The notes under the pieces: generated by a model
Seen by the model: only the letters and a program-made list of their open reading frames with translations
The model's database searches: none
What the model was told of the DNA's origin: nothing
From: Dehalococcoidia bacterium
GTDB taxonomy: Bacteria > Chloroflexota > Dehalococcoidia > WHTO01
Length of the DNA stretch: 60,454 nt
Assembly: GCA_009377665.1 (NCBI GenBank)
Contig: WHTO01000001.1
Coordinates: 1-60,454 of the forward strand
Direction: 5' to 3'
Made by a program: the position numbers and the translations under genes
Shown: in pieces, positions 10,046-22,577 of the stretch
Layout of the letters: each line of letters starts with the position of its first letter
Position numbering within the stretch: the first letter of the stretch is position 1

Positions 10046-10936
10046 ATGGACACCACCCCGGCGCATGATCTCGATCCGTTGCCGGCGCTCGATTCGCAGG
10101 TCGTCGGGCGGCGCCCCGCGCCGGCGCTACGCGACCTGGTGACCGGCTACCAGGGTTACGTCGAAAGCGTCAGCAGTGTGCTCGTCCGCCGGACGTTCCC
10201 GGGGCCCAACGTCGTCCTGATCATCGGCTTTGGGGCTCCGATCCGAGTCGCCGACCCCGGTAGGCCAGGTGCGCCGGCTTCAGACCACATAAGCTTCGTC
10301 GCGGGGCCACACACCCAGCATGGCTTCTACCAGTTCGCGGGAGTGTCCTGCGGTGTCCAGGTCGACCTCACGCCGATCGGGGCCTACCTGTTCTTCGGAG
10401 TACGCATGGACGGGCTTACCGATCGCGTGCTCCGGCTGGACGATATCGTACCCGGTGGCGCGAGTGGGTTATCAGCGTGGTTGCAGGAGCTTCCGGCCTG
10501 GGATGCCCGCTTTGATCTCCTCGACGCCTTCTTCTGTGAGCGCCTGGCCCGCGTGCGGCCCGCCGCTCACGCCGTGACCTGGGCATGGCGAGCGATGATC
10601 GGCTCGCACGGCAACGTCAGCATCGGCGCGCTGGCCGCCGAGGTCGGCTGGAGCCGCAAGCACCTCGCAGCTCGGTTCCACGAGCAGATTGGCCTCTCAC
10701 CAAAGACGGCGGCATCGCTGCTCCGCTTCAATCGGGCGCTGGACCTGCTGCAGCGTCCGACCCATCCCGGCGGCGCGCAGCTCGCCCTGCTTTGCGGCTA
10801 CTACGACCAGACTCACCTGGCCCGGGAGTTCCGCAGGCTCTCGGGCCTCACGATCAGCGAGTTCCTGCGGGCGCCTGCCGCGCTGAACAATCTGCCGTCA
10901 GAGGCGCCCGCTCCAACCATTGCCCTTTCGCCTTAG
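10046..10936 (+). CDS. AraC-family transcriptional regulator
   Basis: The C-terminal HTH_18/AraC signature is present (ALLCGYYDQTHLAREFRRLSGLTISEF). I chose ATG at 10046 over the ORF-track start at 9917. The gene is divergent from etfB. Confidence 0.8.
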   Translation: MDTTPAHDLDPLPALDSQVVGRRPAPALRDLVTGYQGYVESVSSVLVRRTFPGPNVVLIIGFGAPIRVADPGRPGAPASDHISFVAGPHTQHGFYQFAGVSCGVQVDLTPIGAYLFFGVRMDGLTDRVLRLDDIVPGGASGLSAWLQELPAWDARFDLLDAFFCERLARVRPAAHAVTWAWRAMIGSHGNVSIGALAAEVGWSRKHLAARFHEQIGLSPKTAASLLRFNRALDLLQRPTHPGGAQLALLCGYYDQTHLAREFRRLSGLTISEFLRAPAALNNLPSEAPAPTIALSP

Positions 10937-11033
10937 AGGTAAAATTCCTACAAGATCGCGGCCCAGGGACGTCCTTATCCTCACCTCGGATGAACCCGGG
11001 CCGAGGGCTCGGAGTGACCACAAGGAGGAGACG

Positions 11034-11441
11034 ATGACACAGGACCCACCAACAATCTTTCCAGCGATCAGGTACCGGGACGCCGCAGCCGCGATCGAAT
11101 GGCTCGAGCGGGCATTCGGTTTTCGGAGGCTGATGGTCGTGCCGGGCGAAGACGGGGCCGTCATGCACGCCGAGCTAAAGTTGGGCAACGGCGTTGTCAT
11201 GCTCGGTACGGCCGACGAACCCGCCGAGCACGGATCAGATCCGGCGAGTCACGAGGGATTGTACGTGTACGTCGCGGACCTTGACCGGCACTACCAACAG
11301 GCGAAGGCAGCGGGCGCGACCATTGCTCGCGAGCTGGAGGACACCGACTACGGCTCGCGACAGTACGCGGCGCTGGACCCCGAAGGACGACCGTGGACCT
11401 TCGGGACCTACATGCCCGACCTCTCGGGAGCAGCATCGTGA
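11034..11441 (+). CDS. VOC (glyoxalase/bleomycin-resistance fold) family protein, PhnB-like
   Basis: ATG at 11034 is preceded by AAGGAGGAG. The sequence IFPAIRYRDAAAAIEWLERAFGF...GNGVVML...YAALDPEGRPWTFGTY is typical of this family. Confidence 0.8.
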   Translation: MTQDPPTIFPAIRYRDAAAAIEWLERAFGFRRLMVVPGEDGAVMHAELKLGNGVVMLGTADEPAEHGSDPASHEGLYVYVADLDRHYQQAKAAGATIARELEDTDYGSRQYAALDPEGRPWTFGTYMPDLSGAAS

Positions 11442-11836
11442 GCGCCAGCGTGACCGCGTACCTCTGCGCGAAGCCAAGCGCCGACGCGATCGACTTCTAT
11501 AAACGGGCATTCGGGGGTGACGAGCCCGGGGAGAGGATCCTCAACGAAGACGGGTCCATCGGGCACGCCGAGATCGTGATCGGTGACACATCCCTTTACA
11601 TCGCCGACGAATGGCCCGAGGGTGGCCACCTGTCGCCCCAGCGTCTGAAGGGCAGCCCGGTGTCCTTCGTATTGGCGGTTGAGGACGCAGACGCCACGTT
11701 TCAGCGGGCCGTGGACGCCGGAGCGACAGTCGACCGTCCACCGATGGATGAGCCGTACGGACGGGCGGGATGGGTGATCGACCCGTTCGGCCACCGCTGG
11801 TCGGTGACATCCCCCCTCGCGAACGGCGACACTTGA
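11438..11836 (+). CDS. VOC family protein, PhnB-like
   Basis: The GTG start overlaps the upstream stop (GTGA). The pattern AIDFYKRAFGG...HAEIVIGDTSLYIADEW...GWVIDPFGHRWSV is diagnostic. Confidence 0.8.
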   Translation: MSASVTAYLCAKPSADAIDFYKRAFGGDEPGERILNEDGSIGHAEIVIGDTSLYIADEWPEGGHLSPQRLKGSPVSFVLAVEDADATFQRAVDAGATVDRPPMDEPYGRAGWVIDPFGHRWSVTSPLANGDT

Positions 11837-11840
11837 TGAC

Positions 11841-12197
11841 ATGTCGAACGCCGCGGAGGTAGTGGAGACGCTGCGCCGGATCTGCCTGGCTTTGCCCGAG
11901 GCGACGGAGAAGGAGGCCTGGGGGGACCCCACGTTCCGAGTGCGCGACAAAATCTTCGCCATGGTCGATCACAGCCGGGCGTCCTTCTGGTGCAAGGCGC
12001 CCGAAGGCGCGCAGGAGATTCTCGTCGGCGCCGAGCCCGAGACCTTCTTCGTACCCCCGTATGTGGGCCACAAGGGCTGGATCGGAGTGCGCATCGCTGA
12101 CGACGGGGACTGGGAGCAGGTCGCCGGGATCGTCCACGAGAGCTATCGCATGACCGCGCCCAAGCGCCTCCTAAAGCTCCTCGACGAGGACGCCTAG
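11841..12197 (+). CDS. MmcQ/YjbR-family protein (copy 1)
   Basis: 118 aa. It contains EATEKEAWGDPTFRVRDKIFAM...PYVGHKGWIGVRI...ESYRMTAPKRL. Confidence 0.7.
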   Translation: MSNAAEVVETLRRICLALPEATEKEAWGDPTFRVRDKIFAMVDHSRASFWCKAPEGAQEILVGAEPETFFVPPYVGHKGWIGVRIADDGDWEQVAGIVHESYRMTAPKRLLKLLDEDA

Positions 12198-12198
12198 A

Positions 12199-12558
12199 GT
12201 GCCGCCCCTCGAAACCGATCCTGTCGAAGCGGTGCGAAGGATCTGCCTGGCCTTTCCGGAGGCGACGGAGAAGGAGGCGTGGGGCGACCCGACATTTCGG
12301 GTGCAGGACAAGATCTTCGCCATGGTCAAGAACAGCCGCACGACAGTTTGGTGCAAGGCGCCCGAAGGCGCGCAAGAGGTGCTGGTCGGCGCCGAGCCCG
12401 AGACCTTCTTCGTACCGCCCTATGTCGGCCACAGGGGCTGGATCGGAGTCCGGATCGCGGACAACGGGGATTGGGAGCAGGTCGCCGAGATCGTCCACGA
12501 GAGCTATCGCATGACGGCGCCGAAGCGCCTCCTCACGCTCCTCGACGAGTCAGACTGA
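12199..12558 (+). CDS. MmcQ/YjbR-family protein (copy 2, tandem paralogue)
   Basis: 119 aa, collinear with copy 1 and sharing long identical stretches with it. Confidence 0.7.
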   Translation: MPPLETDPVEAVRRICLAFPEATEKEAWGDPTFRVQDKIFAMVKNSRTTVWCKAPEGAQEVLVGAEPETFFVPPYVGHRGWIGVRIADNGDWEQVAEIVHESYRMTAPKRLLTLLDESD

Positions 12559-12566
12559 AGCAGCGA

Positions 12567-12932
12567 TCAGGCGCTGCCGATGGGTGTCTGCTGGTGCAGG
12601 GCCAGCTTCCATTCGCCGCCACGCCTGACGTAGACGCTGCTCGCCAGCGCCCGGTAGTCAGACGGGTCGCCCTCGCGGCGTCCCGTCGCCCGATAGGTGA
12701 TGGCCGCGCTGTCGGGTGTTAGCTCGGTAAGGAGCACGTCCTCGATCTCGAAGCTCGCCCACGGCTGCGCTGCGGCGACCGAATCGATGGTTGCCTCGCG
12801 GCGCAATATGCCCGGTGGCTCCGGGAAGACCATGAGCGCGTCATCGGCCAGATGCTGGCGATAGAACTCGCTGTCGCCGGCGGCGGCCCAAAACTGCTTC
12901 TCCCTCTCGATCAGAGCCTGTTCCGAAACCAC
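12567..12932 (-). CDS. SnoaL-like / DUF4440 (NTF2-fold) protein
   Basis: 121 aa with the typical pattern EREKQFWAA...FYRQHLADDALMVFP...VYVRRGGEWKLALHQQTP. Confidence 0.65.
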   Translation of the reverse strand: MVSEQALIEREKQFWAAAGDSEFYRQHLADDALMVFPEPPGILRREATIDSVAAAQPWASFEIEDVLLTELTPDSAAITYRATGRREGDPSDYRALASSVYVRRGGEWKLALHQQTPIGSA

Positions 12933-12993
12933 GGCTCACCCCCCGAGCATCCCTCGGCCGGGACGCTTCAGGTCCTTATTGTCGCTGGCCAGG

Positions 12994-13389
12994 TCACGCG
13001 ACTGCCATGGCTTCGATCTCGATCATCAGCTCGGGGAAGGCGAGCCGCGTTACACCCAGCAGGGTGCTGGCGGGCCGACAACCCGCGGCAGCGATCCGCG
13101 GGCCGATAGCGCCCAATGCAGGCAGCGCCGCGTCGACATCGGTCACGTAGTAGTTGAGTCGAACCACGTTCGCCAGGCTGAGTCCCGCCTGCTTGAGCAC
13201 GGTCTCTAGGTTGTCCACGGTCTGCACAGCCTGCGCGGCCATGTCACCGGCGTGTACCGGCTTCCCATCGGCGTCAACCGAAGTCTGGCCCGAGCACAAC
13301 AGGAGCTTCTGAGCACCGCTGACCTCGTTCGCCTGGACGAAGCCGAGGTGATCCTGCCATGTCCACGGATTGATGCTTCGCGTTTCCAT
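12994..13389 (-). CDS. RidA/YjgF-family protein
   Basis: ATG at 13389 has a GGAAGGAGAAG RBS. The sequence QTSVDADGKPVHAGDMAAQAVQTVDNLETVLKQAGLSLANVVRLNYYV...IEIEAMA is typical. The longer N-terminal extension in the ORF track is Arg-rich and implausible. Confidence 0.8.
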   Translation of the reverse strand: METRSINPWTWQDHLGFVQANEVSGAQKLLLCSGQTSVDADGKPVHAGDMAAQAVQTVDNLETVLKQAGLSLANVVRLNYYVTDVDAALPALGAIGPRIAAAGCRPASTLLGVTRLAFPELMIEIEAMAVA

Positions 13390-13429
13390 CTCTCTTCTCC
13401 TTCCGAAGGATCCCCTGTTGCGTTGTAAC

Positions 13430-15637
13430 CTACATCTCTTTAGCGTCGGGGGCAGCTTCGACCGGGTGAGCTGGTTGGCCCGCGCCCGGCGTCGGCGGCT
13501 CCGCGGCCGCGGGATTGGCAATGCCAGCGCCAGACGTGACTTCCAGCAGCTCGACGATGTCGAAGGCTTTCATCCTCTTCTCCTCGTCGGGCTGAACCGT
13601 CGGGATGCCATCTTCGAACATCTGGATGCAAAACGGGCAGCCCGTCGCGATGGTGTCGGCGTCGGTGGCGTAGGCGTGCTCTGTACGAGCGTGGTTGATG
13701 CGCTTGCCCTTGGTCTCCTCAACCCACATGTGCCCGCCGCCGGCGCCGCAGCAGAACGCCTTGCGCCGGTTCCATTCCATCTCCGACACGCGCGCGCCCA
13801 TGTTGCCGATCAGCTCGCGCGGGGCCTCGAACGAGTCATTGTGGCGGCCCATATAGCACGGGTCGTGATACGTGACGGTGTACTGGTCGCCGTACTTCCC
13901 GCGCCCGAGCGACTTCTTCGGGCGCAGCGCGCCCTCCTTGACCAGGTCGTTGAAGAACTCGGTGTGATGGATGACCTCGAACTCGCCGCCGAAGTCGGGG
14001 TACTCGTTCTTCATGATGTTGAAGCAGTGGGGGCAGTTGGTGAGGACCTTCTTCGCCCCCGCCTGCTTGAAGGTCTCGATGTTCTGCTGGATCTGGGCCT
14101 GGGCCACGTACTCGTTGCCCATCCGGCGCGCCGGGTCGCCCGAGCAGATCTCGAGGTCTCCAAGCACTCCGAAGGAGACGCCCGCGTGCTGGAGGAGGCT
14201 GGCCATCGCCTTCGTGATCGGGATGTTGCGGTCGGCCAGGGCCCCCGTGCAACCGACCCAGTAGAGATAGTCCTGGCTGCCATCGAAGGTCGGCACGTCC
14301 ATCCCCTCCATCCAGCCGGTGCGGGTGTGCGCGGTGCCACGCCAGGGATGGCCGCGCTGCTCGAGGTTGGCAAGCGTGGCCTGCGCCGTCTCAGGCATGC
14401 GTGCCTCGTCCATCACCAGGAACCGGCGCATGTCGATGATCTCAGGGATGTGCTCGATCATCACCGGGCACTGCTCCATGCAGGCGCCGCAGGTGACGCA
14501 GTCCCAGATCGAGTTGAACCCCTCGGCCTCGATCAGCGTCTCGCCCGGGGCGCCGTGGGCGTCGGCGCTACCCGTTGTGCCGGGACCCTTCTTGAGCGCC
14601 AGCGGTATCAGCGGCGCGTCGACCTCGTGCGTGACGTGCATGCGGGCGTTGTGCTCTATCGCCTTCGGCGAGAGGTCCTTGCCCGTCAGGAAGGCGGGGC
14701 AGTTGACCTCGCAGCGTCCGCACTCGGTGCACGTGTAGAAGTCGAGGATGTTCTTCCACGAGAAGTCCTGCCATTTGCCGACGCCAAAGGCCGGCAGCTC
14801 ATCTTCCTTGCCGGGCTCGGGCTCGGCGAGGGGCGCGTCGAGGTCGAGCTTCCGCAGGTAGGCATAGTTCTCGTCGCGCTTGAAGAGGACGTTGAAGGGC
14901 ACCGTGAAGATGTGCGAGTGCTTGGAGAAGGGCAGGAAGCAGAGAAAGCCTGTGAACACCAGCAGGTGGGCGAACCAGCTGCCCGTGTGGAAGGCCTCGA
15001 GGGCGCCGCGGTCCCAGCCTTCGATCGCCGGCGCCACCGCGTTAGCCAGGAACGACCATTCGGCCCAGTCCGGCTGATAGAGCGCGATCTGCGCGGCGTT
15101 GACCATCACATCCGACACCATCAGAGCCGCGATCAGGAAGAGGATCGCCCAGGCGTCCCAGTTCAGCGTCAGCCGTGGAGGCCGCAGCGCGAAGCGCTGG
15201 AAGGCGGCCATGCCAACGCCCACGATCACCAGCAGGTTGAAGAGGTCCATGACGGGCCGCAGCCACTGATAGACCGGGTCGCCCCAGGCCTGGATGGCAA
15301 TGCCCTCGTCAAACCCTTCGAGGATGAAGTTGAGCGTCCGCAGCTGGAGAACCACGAACCCCCAAAAGATCATCGTGTGCAGGATGCCGCTGTACCAGTA
15401 CCGCGGGCGGGCGACCCTGGCGTTGCCGAGGACCAGCGGGATAAGCTCCGCCGTCCGCTTCGCAATGCTCCGCAGCGAGTACAGCCGGTCCTCACGTCGC
15501 GCCTGCAGCATCGGCTTGAGCAACCGCGCCCACACCGAGTAACCGAAGAAGGCCAGCGCGCCGAAAAAGATCAGCAGAAAGAAGACATTGCCGGGAAAGG
15601 CCGTACCAGGGGTGTGAATCTCCGCCAGCAGATACAT
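13430..15637 (-). CDS. membrane-bound Fe-S oxidoreductase (N-terminal multi-TM domain + 2x[4Fe-4S] + two CCG domains); EtfD/Rv0338c-like
   Basis: TM-rich N-terminus. It has two CxxCxxCxxxCP motifs (CTECGRCEVNCP, CVTCGACMEQCP) and CCG-type cysteine motifs (WVGCTGAL, DPCYMGRHN, FCCGAGGG). I chose ATG at 15637 with a GGAGAC RBS. Confidence 0.8.
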   Translation of the reverse strand: MYLLAEIHTPGTAFPGNVFFLLIFFGALAFFGYSVWARLLKPMLQARREDRLYSLRSIAKRTAELIPLVLGNARVARPRYWYSGILHTMIFWGFVVLQLRTLNFILEGFDEGIAIQAWGDPVYQWLRPVMDLFNLLVIVGVGMAAFQRFALRPPRLTLNWDAWAILFLIAALMVSDVMVNAAQIALYQPDWAEWSFLANAVAPAIEGWDRGALEAFHTGSWFAHLLVFTGFLCFLPFSKHSHIFTVPFNVLFKRDENYAYLRKLDLDAPLAEPEPGKEDELPAFGVGKWQDFSWKNILDFYTCTECGRCEVNCPAFLTGKDLSPKAIEHNARMHVTHEVDAPLIPLALKKGPGTTGSADAHGAPGETLIEAEGFNSIWDCVTCGACMEQCPVMIEHIPEIIDMRRFLVMDEARMPETAQATLANLEQRGHPWRGTAHTRTGWMEGMDVPTFDGSQDYLYWVGCTGALADRNIPITKAMASLLQHAGVSFGVLGDLEICSGDPARRMGNEYVAQAQIQQNIETFKQAGAKKVLTNCPHCFNIMKNEYPDFGGEFEVIHHTEFFNDLVKEGALRPKKSLGRGKYGDQYTVTYHDPCYMGRHNDSFEAPRELIGNMGARVSEMEWNRRKAFCCGAGGGHMWVEETKGKRINHARTEHAYATDADTIATGCPFCIQMFEDGIPTVQPDEEKRMKAFDIVELLEVTSGAGIANPAAAEPPTPGAGQPAHPVEAAPDAKEM

Positions 15638-15920
15638 ACAGGTCTCCGCATGCTCCGGTCGCCGACGCTCAGCGTCTGGCCGCAACCGGGCTGTGTGATG
15701 TCAGGCGCCACCTCGACGATAACCAAAGGCCCACGCGGGGGCGCGCTGTCGGTGAAGGGCTAGCTCAGGTCGGCTCGAACATCAGCACGCCACGCGAAGG
15801 CAACGACGCAAAGGTAGCTAGAGCGGTTACCAGGCCCGGGCATCGGCACCTCACAAAGGTGGATGGGGGATGATTCATCCAACGATATCGGGGCGGAGGC
15901 CAGCGGGATAGGCGGGCGCT

Positions 15921-19148: not shown

Positions 19149-19256
19149 GCGCACGCCGGCAGGGGACTGGTGGACGCCTGGGCCGAGAGAGTTCGCCCTC
19201 CCCGCGCGGGCGGCGCGTGGTCTTGATAGGCTGAGCCGGGACAGAGTGGATCGTCC

Positions 19257-19559
19257 TTGAGCAGGCGCGTGCGTTCCTCGCAGAAGCTCGGCGATAGGCT
19301 CGCTGCAACCAGGCGGCGCACCTTCGCGGGGAGAGCGGCCGAGCTGGAAATGTCCCGCGCGGCGCGCCAGGGCTCGACGCCGTTCCCGGTGATCTATCTC
19401 CACCGTCCCGGTGGGACTGGGAAGACCGCCCTGCTGTCCGAATTCGCGCAACTCACCGAGGAAACGGTTCTCCTGTTCGCTGCTGGACGCCCGCCACGTC
19501 GAGCCATCCCCGAGCGGTTTCCTCGCCGCGCTGGGGCGAGCAATGGACTCGGCTGATTA
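19257..19559 (+). pseudogene. 5' remnant of a STAND/AAA-ATPase regulator gene (truncated, probably frameshifted)
   Basis: It encodes FAGRAAELE...PVIYLHRPGGTGKTALLSEFAQL, which is a P-loop N-terminus of large ATPase/LuxR-type regulators. After about 19470 the plausible continuation (LLDARHVEPSPSGFLAALGRAMD) is in the +1 frame. Both frames stop by 19559, and the sequence beyond is lower in GC. Confidence 0.45.
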
Positions 19560-19683
19560 GACGTGGCATGCCAGGATATGGGCCTATTGGCGCCCGGAAC
19601 CCTCGGGAGAAGGAATGCCCTGAAGGTCATCGTCGGTTTTGAGGTTTGGAATGGTGACCCACATCGTCACCAGCCGCGAACAG

Positions 19684-20094
19684 TTACTTCACTTCGAGCG
19701 AGTTGCCGTCCCATTCGTGGGACGCGTCAGGGACGAATGTAATGGCCAGTCCAGACGCAATCGACCAACCGTCCCCGACCATGCTGATAAGCCATCCCCC
19801 GGGAACTCTGGCCCGATAGATCACCGATTTATGCGCGCCTTTTGAATCTATCTTCTCCCAAAACCACTCTCGGATTAGCCACGTCCGTCTCCTTTCTCCT
19901 GCCGCTTTGCAAAGTCCTCGTCTTTTAGCGGAGACCCGCCTTGGGCCGTTTCCAAGTGCGAGCGTAGGCCGGGTCGGCCTGTCCTGGCACGATTGATTCG
20001 CGAGCAGACACCCCACCGGGTCAGCCGCCATTCGCTCGGCTGCGGGCAGAACGGTCCGTCCCTCCGGTCCCGTCTGATCCCCACATCCGAGCAC
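19684..20094 (-). CDS. hypothetical protein; only the C-terminal ~60 aa look protein-like and the start is unclear
   Basis: The ORF ends ...WFWEKIDSKGAHKSVIYRARVPGGWLISMVGDGWSIASGLAITFVPDASHEWDGNSLEVK. The upstream part is Arg/Pro/Gly-rich. A GGAGAAAGGAGA motif lies just upstream of the plausible part, but there is no canonical in-frame start codon. Confidence 0.25.
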   Translation of the reverse strand: MLGCGDQTGPEGRTVLPAAERMAADPVGCLLANQSCQDRPTRPTLALGNGPRRVSAKRRGLCKAAGERRRTWLIREWFWEKIDSKGAHKSVIYRARVPGGWLISMVGDGWSIASGLAITFVPDASHEWDGNSLEVK

Positions 20095-20268
20095 AGAGGC
20101 GTCTCGTCTTTGGCGAGAACCCTGCCCTGCGGTCGCCGGCGACTGCTATCCAGGCTCGGCTACAGCCCTCACTCGGGCGTCAGGTAGCCTCTCTCCCTAT
20201 TGGTGAGCCACGGGACGTACACGATGCCTCGGTGGACCTCAGCACCTCGGATCAAGGGGTCGAGGAAG

Positions 20269-20682
20269 CTACCCTTCTGACTGCTGCATCGCAGCCATGT
20301 CCACGTAGGCCACCTCCCAGAGGTGTCCGTCGGGATCCTGGAAGCTCCGTGCGTACATGAAACCCTGGTCCATCGTGTCGTTTGAGGGCGACCCGCCCGA
20401 GGCGAGAGCCGTGTCCACCAGATCGTCGACCCGCTCCTTGCTTTCGACCCCCAGCGCAACGATCGCCTCGGTGCTCTTCGTGGCGTCGGCGACGTCCTTA
20501 TTGGTGAACGACTTAAAGTACGGCTCCGTGAGCAGCATGGCGTAGATCTCGTCGCTGATGACCAGGCAGGCGGCGTTCTCGTCCGTGAACTGGGGGTCGA
20601 ACGAATAGCCAAGAGCGGTAAAGAAGGCCTTCGACTTATCGAGGTCCTTCACGGGGAGGTTGACAAAGATCTTCGTAGACAT
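20269..20682 (-). CDS. VOC/glyoxalase-fold family protein
   Basis: 137 aa: MSTKIFVNLPVKDLDKSKAFFTALGYSF...FQDPDGHLWEVAYVDM. Confidence 0.8.
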   Translation of the reverse strand: MSTKIFVNLPVKDLDKSKAFFTALGYSFDPQFTDENAACLVISDEIYAMLLTEPYFKSFTNKDVADATKSTEAIVALGVESKERVDDLVDTALASGGSPSNDTMDQGFMYARSFQDPDGHLWEVAYVDMAAMQQSEG

Positions 20683-20777
20683 TGGTTCGTCATCGTTTCG
20701 ATCGCCAGGTATTGCAAATCTGCCGAAATGAGCTTGCTAAAAACAAGCATTGTCTGTAAAGACAAGTTGTCGATGGC

Positions 20778-22472
20778 TTAGGGACAGCCCTCCGTCCAAC
20801 CGCCTAGCAGAAGAGCCTCGCTACGCTCGGCGCCGCTTCCCATCCGGAGGAGGTCCGTCCTGTCCCCGAACACTTGGCGCAGAGCCTCCAACGATACCTG
20901 CACGGCTTCCACGGCGCTCTTTTGTAGTTCCTTCTGGTTTACGTTTGGAGCACCATGAACTACTCGACTACGGAGGCCATAAATCTTCTTGAATCTCTTC
21001 TGGCGATCTCGACGCGCGTCAGCGGTACTTGCAAGGAGCCAGGCAAGGGCGGTTGACACTCGGAGCGTCGTTTCGTTCGCGCCGCCAAAGAGGTTCTCCC
21101 AAACCACGATGGCATCGACTAGCACGTCCTCGGGCAGTCGCCGGTCGGCCGTGGCCATTAGCATTCGGCGAATCGCCACGCTGACGCCCGCAGCGCGATA
21201 GTCATGAATCTTCTTGGACCAGCCGGCCCACTCGGCTGCCTGCGCGTCAGCAAGCCGGGTCGGTGTCAGTGTTCGGATCGCCTGTGGGTCGGACCATCCC
21301 ACGCTCAATGCAGCCGAAAGCGGATCGATGATTGCCCGCCACGTGGCGGCGACGATCAGCGGACGCGCATCGGGACAGGCGAGGAGTATTCCTAGTCGAA
21401 CGTTCTCAACTAGCTCGTCCACTTTTCTGAGGGCTGCCAAGTCGTTCGGCCACTTGCTATCAAGCGTGCCTACATCCGCGTGGACCTCTATCTGGTACTC
21501 AAGTTCGGTCTCCAGGACGACATCGCCGCTGTAGCGGATGATGACCGTGTCGCCGTCGGAGGAGTGCCCCTGCAGTCTCCCCTCGAGCGCTGTGCGCCGC
21601 ACGATCCGCTCATCACGGTCATCGGCCGGGCGCAACTTCGCCCACCCCAGGTCGAGCAATTGACAGGTGTCGGGGAGTATGACACCAGTAAGACCGATAC
21701 GAACAGGGACGACGGCCGGTCGGCCCGCAATCGCGGATCGAACGAGAGTTAGCATTTGGCGTACGCCATCGACGAGGGAATCAACCGTGACTTCTGCCTG
21801 CGCTAAGGAAGCAAAGTCAAGGCCAGCCGTGATGACTGAACTTGCGAAGCCCGCCAGCTGATTGCCGCCGCCTTGACCCGTGCTCCGCAAGCTATTGCCC
21901 TGGCGCTGCCAGTCCAACTGCCCGGGGGAATGAGGAAATAGTTTCACCAACTCTTTGTCGCTTAGAACGGCCTCCTGGAAGCGACCGTCCAGGGGGTGCC
22001 TGAATGTCGCCGAACCGAAATGGGATCCGAATCTGGGATCCTCGCGACCGAGTACAAGCAGGACTGCATAGAGGTCTATCGCCAGAGCCGTGAGTGAGGT
22101 GGTGACAGGATCCGTCTCAGGCAGGGCCGACTTTATCTCACCCCCGCACGATTGTCTGATGATGGTTCCGACAGATTCCGATTGGCCGTCGCCACACGAC
22201 CCGAGCCAATTGCTCCACCGAAGCTCGCGTGCAACCTCGTCTTGGAGCTGGGCCGCGACCGAAGACAGTCGTTGGATAGCAGCTTCCCGGCGTTCGTCCC
22301 ACCTCGGTCTGTCTGGGTTCGAAACTAGTTCCTGTACCTGATGCCGCTCTAGGTTCAGCAAGTAACCGAGCGCGTCCTCCCCGAGGTGCTCGTTGAGGAG
22401 GAGCTCGGGCTTCATACGCACAATGATCGAATCAACTGACAAGGGCGCATGCCCCTCGGGAGCAGGGTTCAT
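20778..22472 (-). CDS. large uncharacterised protein with a C-terminal HEPN-like domain (Rx4H motif)
   Basis: The ORF-track start at 22541 overlaps tRNA-Ala, so I use ATG at 22472; ATG at 22415 is an alternative. The C-terminus reads ...VVWENLFGG.NETTLRVSTALAWLLA...RFKKIYGLRSRVVHG... with R-S-R-V-V-H at 20955-20972. I recognise no motif in the first ~430 aa. GC content and codon usage are visibly lower than in the flanks. Confidence 0.6.
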   Translation of the reverse strand: MNPAPEGHAPLSVDSIIVRMKPELLLNEHLGEDALGYLLNLERHQVQELVSNPDRPRWDERREAAIQRLSSVAAQLQDEVARELRWSNWLGSCGDGQSESVGTIIRQSCGGEIKSALPETDPVTTSLTALAIDLYAVLLVLGREDPRFGSHFGSATFRHPLDGRFQEAVLSDKELVKLFPHSPGQLDWQRQGNSLRSTGQGGGNQLAGFASSVITAGLDFASLAQAEVTVDSLVDGVRQMLTLVRSAIAGRPAVVPVRIGLTGVILPDTCQLLDLGWAKLRPADDRDERIVRRTALEGRLQGHSSDGDTVIIRYSGDVVLETELEYQIEVHADVGTLDSKWPNDLAALRKVDELVENVRLGILLACPDARPLIVAATWRAIIDPLSAALSVGWSDPQAIRTLTPTRLADAQAAEWAGWSKKIHDYRAAGVSVAIRRMLMATADRRLPEDVLVDAIVVWENLFGGANETTLRVSTALAWLLASTADARRDRQKRFKKIYGLRSRVVHGAPNVNQKELQKSAVEAVQVSLEALRQVFGDRTDLLRMGSGAERSEALLLGGWTEGCP

Positions 22473-22501
22473 CTGGGTGGAACAGAGATTCCGGGCAGGC
22501 T

Positions 22502-22577
22502 TGGTGGAGCTGAGGGGACTCGAACCCCTGACCCCCTGCATGCCATGCAGGTGCTCTCCCAGCTGAGCTACAGCCCC
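22502..22577 (-). tRNA. tRNA-Ala (anticodon GGC)
   Basis: The 76-nt cloverleaf was folded by hand: GGGGCUG/UA/GCUC-AGCUGGGA-GAGC/A/CCUGC-AUGGCAU-GCAGG/GGGUC/AGGGG-UUCGAGU-CCCCU/CAGCUCC/A/CCA. The G3:U70 alanine identity pair is present and CCA is encoded. Confidence 0.95.

Follow-up and report, generated by a model that had tools for sequence, protein, structure and literature searches.

The fusion of a sensor to a HEPN RNase is a well-established principle. ApeA is a single-protein abortive infection system of about 590 amino acids with N-terminal, Mid and split HEPN domains; it forms decamers or dodecamers and cuts tRNA anticodon loops, its activators being 5'-phosphorylated deoxydinucleotides that occupy a pocket lying between the N-terminal domain and the HEPN domain, and the structures closest to its HEPN domain are the HepT entries 5YEP and 7AE8 (bioRxiv 10.64898/2026.01.26.701840). 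In DARNA (PD-T7-3) the HEPN domain is N-terminal, and a Pds5-like C-terminal domain binds single-stranded DNA (bioRxiv 10.64898/2026.02.22.705581). The HEPN domain itself is defined as a four-helix bundle in which helix 3 ends with an Rx4-6H motif, the arginine is followed by a polar residue (usually N, D or H) and helix 2 often carries an Ex3[KR] motif (Anantharaman et al. 2013, PMC3710099). Here we analysed a 60,454-nucleotide stretch of contig WHTO01000001.1 from a Dehalococcoidia bacterium, called below the window. Directly downstream of a tRNA-Ala(GGC) gene, it contains a gene for a large protein with a HEPN-like motif near its C-terminus, which an earlier inspection of the letters of this DNA (the sequence-only reading) had proposed as a candidate single-gene defence system. 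The observation is confirmed, and its interpretation is supported as a candidate. On balance, the protein appears to be a stand-alone, horizontally mobile, ApeA-like abortive-infection HEPN RNase of a new family.

The open reading frame (ORF) is intact. The sequence-only reading gave its length as 565-587 amino acids (aa). The long minus-strand ORF is real (20778..22541, 587 aa from the first ATG of the ORF list), but its first ATG (22541) was rejected as the start, as it sits within the tRNA gene. Two further starts were considered: ATG 22472, which gives 564 aa and leaves a gap of 29 nucleotides (nt) to the tRNA, and ATG 22415, which gives 545 aa and a gap of 86 nt, to be compared with the distance of about 30 nt on the same strand read earlier. 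ATG 22415 is favoured, because it is used in the NCBI record GEU28_00105 (hypothetical protein of a Dehalococcoidia metagenome-assembled genome, MAG, 100% identical), because the alignment of homologues sets in near residue 20, and because residues 1-18 are disordered in the AlphaFold model (predicted local distance difference test, pLDDT, < 50). Residue numbers throughout are those of the 564-aa version (ATG 22472). The peptides KKIYGLRSRVVHG and VVWENLFGG..ETTLRVSTALAWLLA, quoted earlier as parts of the protein, are both present in the translation, and the hexapeptide R-S-R-V-V-H, described as fitting Rx4-6H, had been placed at the correct coordinates. The features of the gene are as follows.

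20778..22415, minus strand: coding sequence of the HEPN-motif protein, 545 aa and stop codon (ORF list, NCBI start, homologue alignment)

21933..22415, minus strand: all-helical region at the N-terminus (residues 20-180), a proposed sensor or regulatory module and more variable than any other part of the family (AlphaFold secondary structure)

21273..21917, minus strand: middle alpha/beta domain, residues 186-400, with few conserved residues (model)

20808..21260, minus strand: C-terminal helical domain, residues 405-555, with a predicted HEPN-like four-helix core (domain model)

21084..21128, minus strand: codons of D449..D453..W458-E459-N460-L461-F462-G463, a near-invariant helix comparable to ENQLLNLWIAIESL of ApeA

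21060..21074, minus strand: codons of E467-T-T-L-R471, the E-x3-R motif at the start of the helix preceding the motif helix (conservation)

20955..20972, minus strand: codons of R501-S502-R503-V504-V505-H506, the Rx4H motif with the proposed catalytic Arg and His (conservation, helix position)

22502..22577, minus strand: tRNA-Ala(GGC), its CCA end encoded, immediately upstream in the same orientation (ARAGORN)

No match for the protein was found in Pfam, NCBIfam or PADLOC, in line with the earlier statement that it cannot be assigned to a described family. Short matches to PADLOC PbeA (E=0.026, 40 residues) and NCBIfam PtuB (E=0.026), covering 30-40 residues, were treated as noise. A sequence search of the PDB with the single protein gave no match, and candidates from the single-protein and full-length profile searches (designed helical repeats, an ECF sigma factor, a thiaminase) were discarded as chance similarities. 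The N-terminal 400 residues match nothing known, as had been noted for the region preceding the HEPN part. A word-indexed homologue search yielded 16 relatives of approximately 520-590 aa with 33-43% identity and without Pfam domains; Pfam likewise gave nothing on a set of 17 homologues. In an exhaustive profile search of 1.84 billion cluster representatives, 5025 proteins passed E<=1e-3, 1418 of them also 1e-10 and 925 also 1e-30; of the 150 best matches, almost every one aligns over the full length. Judged from these searches, the protein belongs to a sizeable unnamed family of about 540 aa with a fixed architecture, mostly from Actinomycetota. The Dehalococcoidia copy is an outlier, its closest relative being 43% identical.

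Conservation was computed over 127 full-length members. Residues conserved in at least 90% of them are almost all located within the last 130 residues. R501 (0.99), S502 (0.98), H506 (0.99) and G507 (0.98) form the conserved core of the motif, with R501 and H506 invariant in alignments A2, A3 and A5. A helix further upstream contains D449 (1.00), D453 (1.00), W458 (0.98), E459 (1.00) and G463 (0.99), and between them lie E467 (0.89) and R471 (0.94). Altogether R436, R444, D449, D453, W458, E459, G463, R471, R487, Y498, R501, S502, H506, G507 and R550 are each conserved in at least 94% of members. In the middle domain the conserved residues are only G263, R281, G316, W378 and P384, and the RSTGQGG motif of that domain is restricted to close relatives. 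A bare Rx4-6H pattern has no statistical weight, since 93% of shuffles of this protein carry at least one; the weight comes from the 99% conservation of both residues and from their structural position. Mean pairwise identity rises from 0.24 in the N-terminal region through 0.29 in the middle domain to 0.39 in the C-terminal domain and 0.43 in its core, a gradient as expected if a conserved effector follows regulatory or sensor parts that evolve faster.

A full-length AlphaFold2 model built from the family alignment is compact (pLDDT 87.7, predicted template modelling score 0.85). Residues 22-178 form a helical N-terminal region and residues 186-400 a middle domain of alpha/beta type; the C-terminal domain (405-555) is again helical and, modelled alone, has pLDDT 93.5. 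We propose a HEPN core of four predicted helices, H1 447-462, H2 469-480, H3 484-505 and H4 513-536. In both predicted models residues R501-V505 close the helix 484-505, and H506-G507 open the loop before the helix 513-536, so that the Rx4H motif occupies the helix-3 end position of the definition. S502 is the polar residue following the arginine, serine being an unusual choice. E467-x3-R471 at the start of the helix 469-480 corresponds to the second signature, Ex3[KR] of helix 2. Thus the models place every sequence-level and position-level feature of a HEPN domain where it is expected.

The Foldseek library contained entries up to April 2026, and ApeA structures may be absent from it. With the full-length model, nothing was found in the PDB or among the BFVD viral predictions (best E 0.37 and 0.28, template modelling score, TM, < 0.15), and the single HEPN entry listed was 5yep_C at E=4.3. 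With the C-terminal domain, the top entries by probability and TM among the 50 matches listed were the HepT toxins 7ae8_B (probability 0.57, TM 0.45/0.47) and 7ae9_C (0.54, 0.46/0.50), then 7ae8_C, 5yep_B and 5yep_C, and a Csx1 entry was also present; the HepT E-values were 2.4-2.8, and no domain-model match fell below E = 1.0. When the C-terminal profile was compared with 177,635 PDB sequences, the sole match was Ec2ApeA at a sub-significant E=0.14, with IY.LRS..VHG aligned on IYRTRNLIVHT, that is, on the catalytic R502/H507 motif of ApeA. The best profile match in any library was phrog_28161, an unannotated phage family, to which three of five tested members of the present family align from WENLFG to Rx4H with E from 3e-6 to 4e-4.

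ApeA is represented in the PDB by Ec1-Ec4ApeA (9HXB-9HXN). With a fragment of Ec2ApeA as query, the homologue search yielded one fragment, and for the comparison a profile of 73 sequences was rebuilt instead from the PDB alignments, Bacillales plasmid homologues and 80 metagenomic loci. The family profile aligned by hhalign to this profile with residues 459-533 on ApeA 454-535 (P=0.006). A second collinear match, residues 441-487, pairs PEDVLVDAIVVWENLFG with VENQLLNLWIAIESLIP and is not significant alone (P=0.3). The isolated domain against the ApeA HEPN profile gave P=4e-4 and a probability of 35%, with P=0.31 for the reversed-template control. Taken with the conservation and the helix positions, these matches make it likely that the C-terminal domain is a HEPN domain. 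The ApeA-type build suggested by the sequence-only reading, a large N-terminal region joined to a C-terminal HEPN domain, is supported as a candidate by the same conservation, helix position and best matches to HepT and ApeA.

A scan with the family pattern of one genome per species (185,579 species) detected 31 loci, almost all of them in Actinomycetota (Amycolatopsis, Rathayibacter, Pseudonocardiales, Streptomyces, Dactylosporangium and others), with single cases in Saccharibacteria, Phycisphaerae and Dormiibacterota. The GC content of the gene is below that of its flanks in 34 of 37 loci, on average by 7.7 points. The gene stands alone: no neighbour family occurs in more than three of 33 loci, and no small ORF, flanking sequence or tandem repeat is conserved family-wide. 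The possibility that this is a syntenic core gene was checked, and the family was found to be patchy, mostly actinobacterial and low in GC relative to its flanks, with no conserved partner.

Elsewhere, the gene often has neighbours of the kind expected for defence or mobile cargo. The homologues on Rhodococcus plasmids lie between insertion sequence (IS) elements, and on a linear plasmid these are IS110 and IS630, near CcdA and DUF4258 toxin-antitoxin genes. One locus combines a large serine recombinase with SLFN/AlbA_2 and Ymh-type genes; others contain an OLD-family ATPase-TOPRIM nuclease, ArdA, or Prim-Pol, SSB and DUF2637 genes. The 105 nearest neighbours in 27 further loci include type I HsdR (2), Mrr (2), PDC-S02 (2; this is SLFN/AlbA_2), SoFic and PDC-M30, PDC-M41 and PDC-M68, as well as a type II methyltransferase, transposases and resolvases. 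In Propionibacteriaceae bacterium G1746 a divergent homologue (L035:8677-10381), frameshifted into ORFs of 413 and 225 aa, adjoins a type I HsdR gene of 1057 aa (10403-13576); in Georgenia (L034) this divergent branch is represented by an intact protein of 548 aa.

Members of a P0005/P0007-like sub-clade have their flanking sequence in common, as well as small ORFs upstream (in L002, of 99 and 72 aa; the region L002:2003-2530 matches the upstream regions of L005, L010 and L012) and, nearby, a large XRE-type helix-turn-helix protein of 540-610 aa. These shared features suggest a single type of mobile element as the carrier of this sub-clade.

Immediately upstream of the gene, four independent loci from three phyla carry a tRNA gene in the same orientation:

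window 22415-22577: tRNA-Ala, same strand as the gene (Dehalococcoidia)

L011:9638-10000: tRNA-Lys, same strand, approximately 280 nt upstream (Humidisolicoccus)

L014:9783-10013: tRNA-Val, same strand, approximately 150 nt upstream (Saccharibacteria MAG)

L012:9053-10004: tRNA-Leu, same strand, approximately 870 nt upstream (Pseudonocardiaceae MAG)

Most loci have no nearby tRNA. Assuming about 1e-5 tRNA genes per bp, approximately 0.2 such loci would be expected by our estimate versus the four observed. Most simply, this would reflect the well-known role of tRNA genes as insertion hot spots. None of the tRNA-linked loci has an adjacent integrase. An integrase-type island in the window was considered and rejected, as the window contains neither an integrase nor a second copy of the 3' end of tRNA-Ala. 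A 25-nt stretch at 20144-20168, 2.4 kb away and just past the glyoxalase-family gene that follows downstream, resembles the 5' half of tRNA-Ala, with its acceptor and D arm, at 80% identity. It may be a decayed tRNA remnant, or it may be a chance match, as neither ARAGORN nor Rfam calls a tRNA there. In E-value mode Rfam reports the tRNA-Ala at 22502-22577 itself as a transfer-messenger RNA (tmRNA; 41.4 bits, gathering score 47); this label is an artefact, since only the best match per clan is reported, and ARAGORN finds a normal tRNA-Ala(GGC).

The integrity of the gene, the conservation of the motif, its structural placement, the solitary organisation and the mobility were all computed here. 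Together they point, with rather better than even probability, to an ApeA-like single-protein abortive infection system. If so, in an uninfected cell the N-terminal and middle domains would hold the HEPN site inactive, and a cue of infection would alter the conformation or assembly of the protein. By analogy, the cue could be a nucleotide-derived small molecule, as in ApeA, or a phage nucleic acid or protein, as in DARNA. R501 and H506, aided by S502, E467 and R471, would then cut RNA in a metal-independent manner, at a site probably paired across a homodimer as in other HEPN enzymes. The target may be host or phage RNA, tRNA anticodon loops being the likeliest by analogy with ApeA, DARNA and PrrC. 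Translation would stop, growth would be arrested and the infection aborted.

Several observations weigh against this reading. The TM scores of 0.45-0.50 are borderline, four-helix bundles easily produce chance matches, and no HEPN match is significant alone, the Ec2ApeA match and the 35% HH-suite probability included. Pfam models of the HEPN clan gave no match, neither for the query (E<=10) nor for 17 members (E<=1). The catalytic residues are lost in a branch of the family represented by a 521-aa homologue on the Salinivibrio kushneri plasmid NZ_CP114589.1 (L041:5746-7311) and by the hits H8, H10 and H11, all from Gammaproteobacteria: in these proteins the N-terminal and middle domains are still present (24% identity, E of about 1e-16), whereas VVWENLFG is replaced by IIALRNIFA and LRSxVVHG by DWRALLSGE, with E459 and H506 lost. 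This appears to be an inactivated HEPN branch, and it means that the scaffold can serve a role other than that of a nuclease. Moreover, no relatives were found in the viral contigs or phage genomes searched. Finally, the gene is surrounded in the window by housekeeping genes (TypA, DinB, glyoxalase-family, PNPOx, MgtC, LeuS), and hence it lies in no defence island here. As a separate observation, the Salinivibrio-branch homologues sit among ordinary-looking genes.

The best surviving alternative, which we nevertheless consider improbable, is that the protein is a HEPN toxin serving mobile elements themselves, through post-segregational addiction or competition between elements, for example against plasmids or integrative and conjugative elements (ICEs), and not against phages. 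The low GC content and the patchy distribution would be consistent with this possibility, as would the homologues in or beside plasmid- or ICE-like genes (serine recombinase, ArdA, Prim-Pol/SSB/DUF2637) and the copy beside IS110/IS630 and toxin-antitoxin genes on the Rhodococcus linear plasmid. However, addiction modules normally need an antitoxin, and no conserved antitoxin gene or RNA adjoins this gene; both a type III-like RNA antitoxin and a small antitoxin ORF were sought and rejected, there being no tandem repeats and no family-wide flanking ORF. Many of the neighbours are restriction or candidate defence genes, not plasmid maintenance genes, and the large N-terminal and middle extension is better suited to a built-in sensor than to a simple toxin.

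Slightly less credible still is the possibility that the C-terminal domain is not a HEPN nuclease at all, and that the R..H pair is a nucleotide, phosphate or ligand site in a novel, non-nucleolytic helical domain. The sub-significance of all HEPN matches and the lack of a matching Pfam HEPN model would agree with it, the additional conserved residues R436, R444, D449, D453, R487 and R550 could bind a phosphorylated ligand, and the Salinivibrio branch has been retained without H506 and E459. On the other hand, the top matches by structure and by sequence are all HEPN domains and not random helical bundles, and the reversed-profile control is flat.

That the protein is a housekeeping RNA-processing or regulatory factor tied to the adjacent tRNA, in its maturation or quality control, and part of no conflict system is very improbable: the start of the gene 29-86 nt downstream of tRNA-Ala in the same orientation, no terminator intervening, the Lys, Val and Leu tRNAs so placed at three other loci and the housekeeping neighbours in the window are consistent with such a role, but the identity of the tRNA varies by locus and most loci have none, most genomes lack the gene (the pattern used recovered 31 loci in 185,579 species), nearly all hosts differ from it in composition, there is no synteny, and tRNA genes attract insertions in any case.

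In the window the gene differs from its surroundings. It has GC 0.608 and GC at third codon positions (GC3) 0.670, whereas GC3 is 0.815-0.857 in all seven neighbouring genes (typA, DinB-family, glyoxalase-family, PNPOx-family, a second glyoxalase-type gene, mgtC and leuS); relative to the ORFs of the whole window its GC3 has z = -2.1. The less GC-biased codon usage noticed in the sequence-only reading is therefore borne out. The lower-GC islet described there is real as to the atypical composition but is confined to one gene, since the next gene downstream, of the glyoxalase family (20269-20682), has a native GC3 of 0.847. The islet had also been thought to be edged by a decayed ATPase gene. 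This does not hold: the fragment concerned lies past the native glyoxalase-family gene and marks no boundary. It is a 99-aa ORF on the plus strand (19257-19556) whose match to the AAA_16 N-terminus stays below the threshold (E=2.4e-5, 25 bits versus a cut-off of 32.6), and is probably a remnant of a large ATPase or regulator gene. The region around it, approximately 1.1 kb (19150-20268), contains no convincing gene.

A glyoxalase-family gene is also found near the Humidisolicoccus homologue, the two proteins being 31% identical. Co-transfer of this gene with the HEPN-motif gene was rejected, given the native codon usage of the copy in the window. A further ORF of low GC3 on the plus strand (13370-15763) was discarded, being an artefact that lies antisense to a minus-strand CCG/4Fe-4S gene.

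Between tRNA-Ala and the ORF, a site scan detected no terminator-like or sigma-70-like site. One feature is found past the stop codon:

20732..20765, minus strand: two small hairpins in the AT-richer spacer, a possible weak terminator

The hairpin TTGTCT-gtaa-AGACAA reported earlier at 20750-20765 exists and is followed by the second small one. Compared with shuffled sequence, the spacer past the stop codon shows no better fold (z = -1.2).

If the proposed function is correct, a large family, amounting to hundreds to thousands of sequence clusters, would be added to the single-protein HEPN abortive-infection systems. It is common in Streptomyces, Amycolatopsis, Rhodococcus and other Actinomycetota and sporadic in Chloroflexota, Saccharibacteria and Planctomycetota. 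Defence is poorly mapped in such organisms, and Pfam, NCBIfam and PADLOC see nothing in this protein. The non-catalytic domains of ApeA and DARNA sense small molecules or nucleic acids produced in infection, and thus the unrelated N-terminal and middle domains of the present family, which have no relative among the solved or viral structures searched, could lead to a new trigger. The gain would lie in the family and the sensor, both new, and not in the concept. An experimental test is worthwhile, because the family is large, is missed by current annotation and defence models, and is concentrated in Actinomycetota. We give little credence to a bolder version, in which this is an unnamed actinobacterial immune family with a new infection sensor and, in addition, the position downstream of Ala, Lys, Val and Leu tRNAs in three phyla is itself functional; in that case possible mechanisms are read-through from tRNA promoters or integrase-free insertion of the cassette at tRNA 3' ends.

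Compared with known systems, the protein matches none of the Pfam or PADLOC models for HEPN Abi proteins of the lactococcal type (AbiD/F Abi_2, AbiJ, AbiU2, AbiV). The phage family phrog_28161 is a 315-aa profile without annotation, and only about 55 residues align. With DARNA and PrrC/RloC, which are tRNA-cleaving abortive-infection enzymes, it shares the combination of a HEPN RNase and a large non-catalytic sensor in one polypeptide, insofar as the proposed roles of its domains are correct, and some family members, like PrrC/RloC, adjoin type I restriction genes. However, PrrC and RloC contain an ABC-ATPase, and DARNA has its HEPN domain at the N-terminus, not at the C-terminus as here; neither an ABC-ATPase nor a Pds5-like domain was detected in this protein by Pfam, NCBIfam or PADLOC.

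HepT toxins are proteins of approximately 130-150 aa paired with an MNT antitoxin that AMPylates HepT (type VII HepT/MntA). The predicted core shares with them a minimal four-helix HEPN architecture with Rx4H, and they are its best matches by TM and probability (7AE8, 7AE9, 5YEP). The place of the motif in the domain is also similar, residue 97 of 160 here and R102 of about 150 in 7AE8. The differences are the 400-aa N-terminal extension and the lack of an adjacent antitoxin gene: at 545 aa, with a tRNA and a glyoxalase-family gene as neighbours in the window and no recurrent neighbour in 33 loci, the gene falls outside HepT/MntA.

Full-length ApeA homologues of about 592 aa were observed on plasmids of Bacillus thuringiensis (L038:1573-3351), Planococcus (L039:1582-3357) and Cytobacillus (L040:1564-3339), with E=1e-27 to Ec3ApeA, each next to or near an xerS recombinase gene. 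They have no Pfam match, so the Apea-like models of Pfam miss that ApeA clade.

The closest comparison is with ApeA itself. No match to PADLOC ApeA or to the Pfam models of the Apea-like HEPN and ApeA N-terminal domains was obtained for the present protein; since the genuine homologues from Bacillus plasmids have no Pfam match either, the Pfam result carries little weight. Its N-terminal and middle regions do not align to ApeA in hhalign with the 73-sequence profile. Membership in the ApeA family is not claimed, because the hhalign match stayed as short as before when the ApeA HEPN insertion was removed. The profile-profile similarity is limited to helices 3-4. The predicted HEPN domain here is compact, with about 43 residues from E459 to R501, whereas that of ApeA is split, with about 130 between the equivalent positions; the middle domain is rich in beta-strands here and is described as mostly helical in ApeA; and the hosts here are mainly Actinomycetota. 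On the other hand, both are encoded by stand-alone genes without a partner and are of similar size (545-564 aa here, 593 aa in Ec2ApeA), with the same three-part layout of N-terminal region, middle domain and C-terminal HEPN domain. Even the catalytic numbering nearly coincides, R501/H506 here and R502/H507 in Ec2ApeA. The motif stands in the same context, I-Y-x-x-R-[SN]-x-x-V-H, with an E-[SN]-L helix upstream, and HepT 7AE8 and 5YEP are the best structures for both HEPN domains. Thus, while it lies outside the ApeA family by these comparisons, the protein seems to work like ApeA, and the two may derive from a common HEPN lineage.

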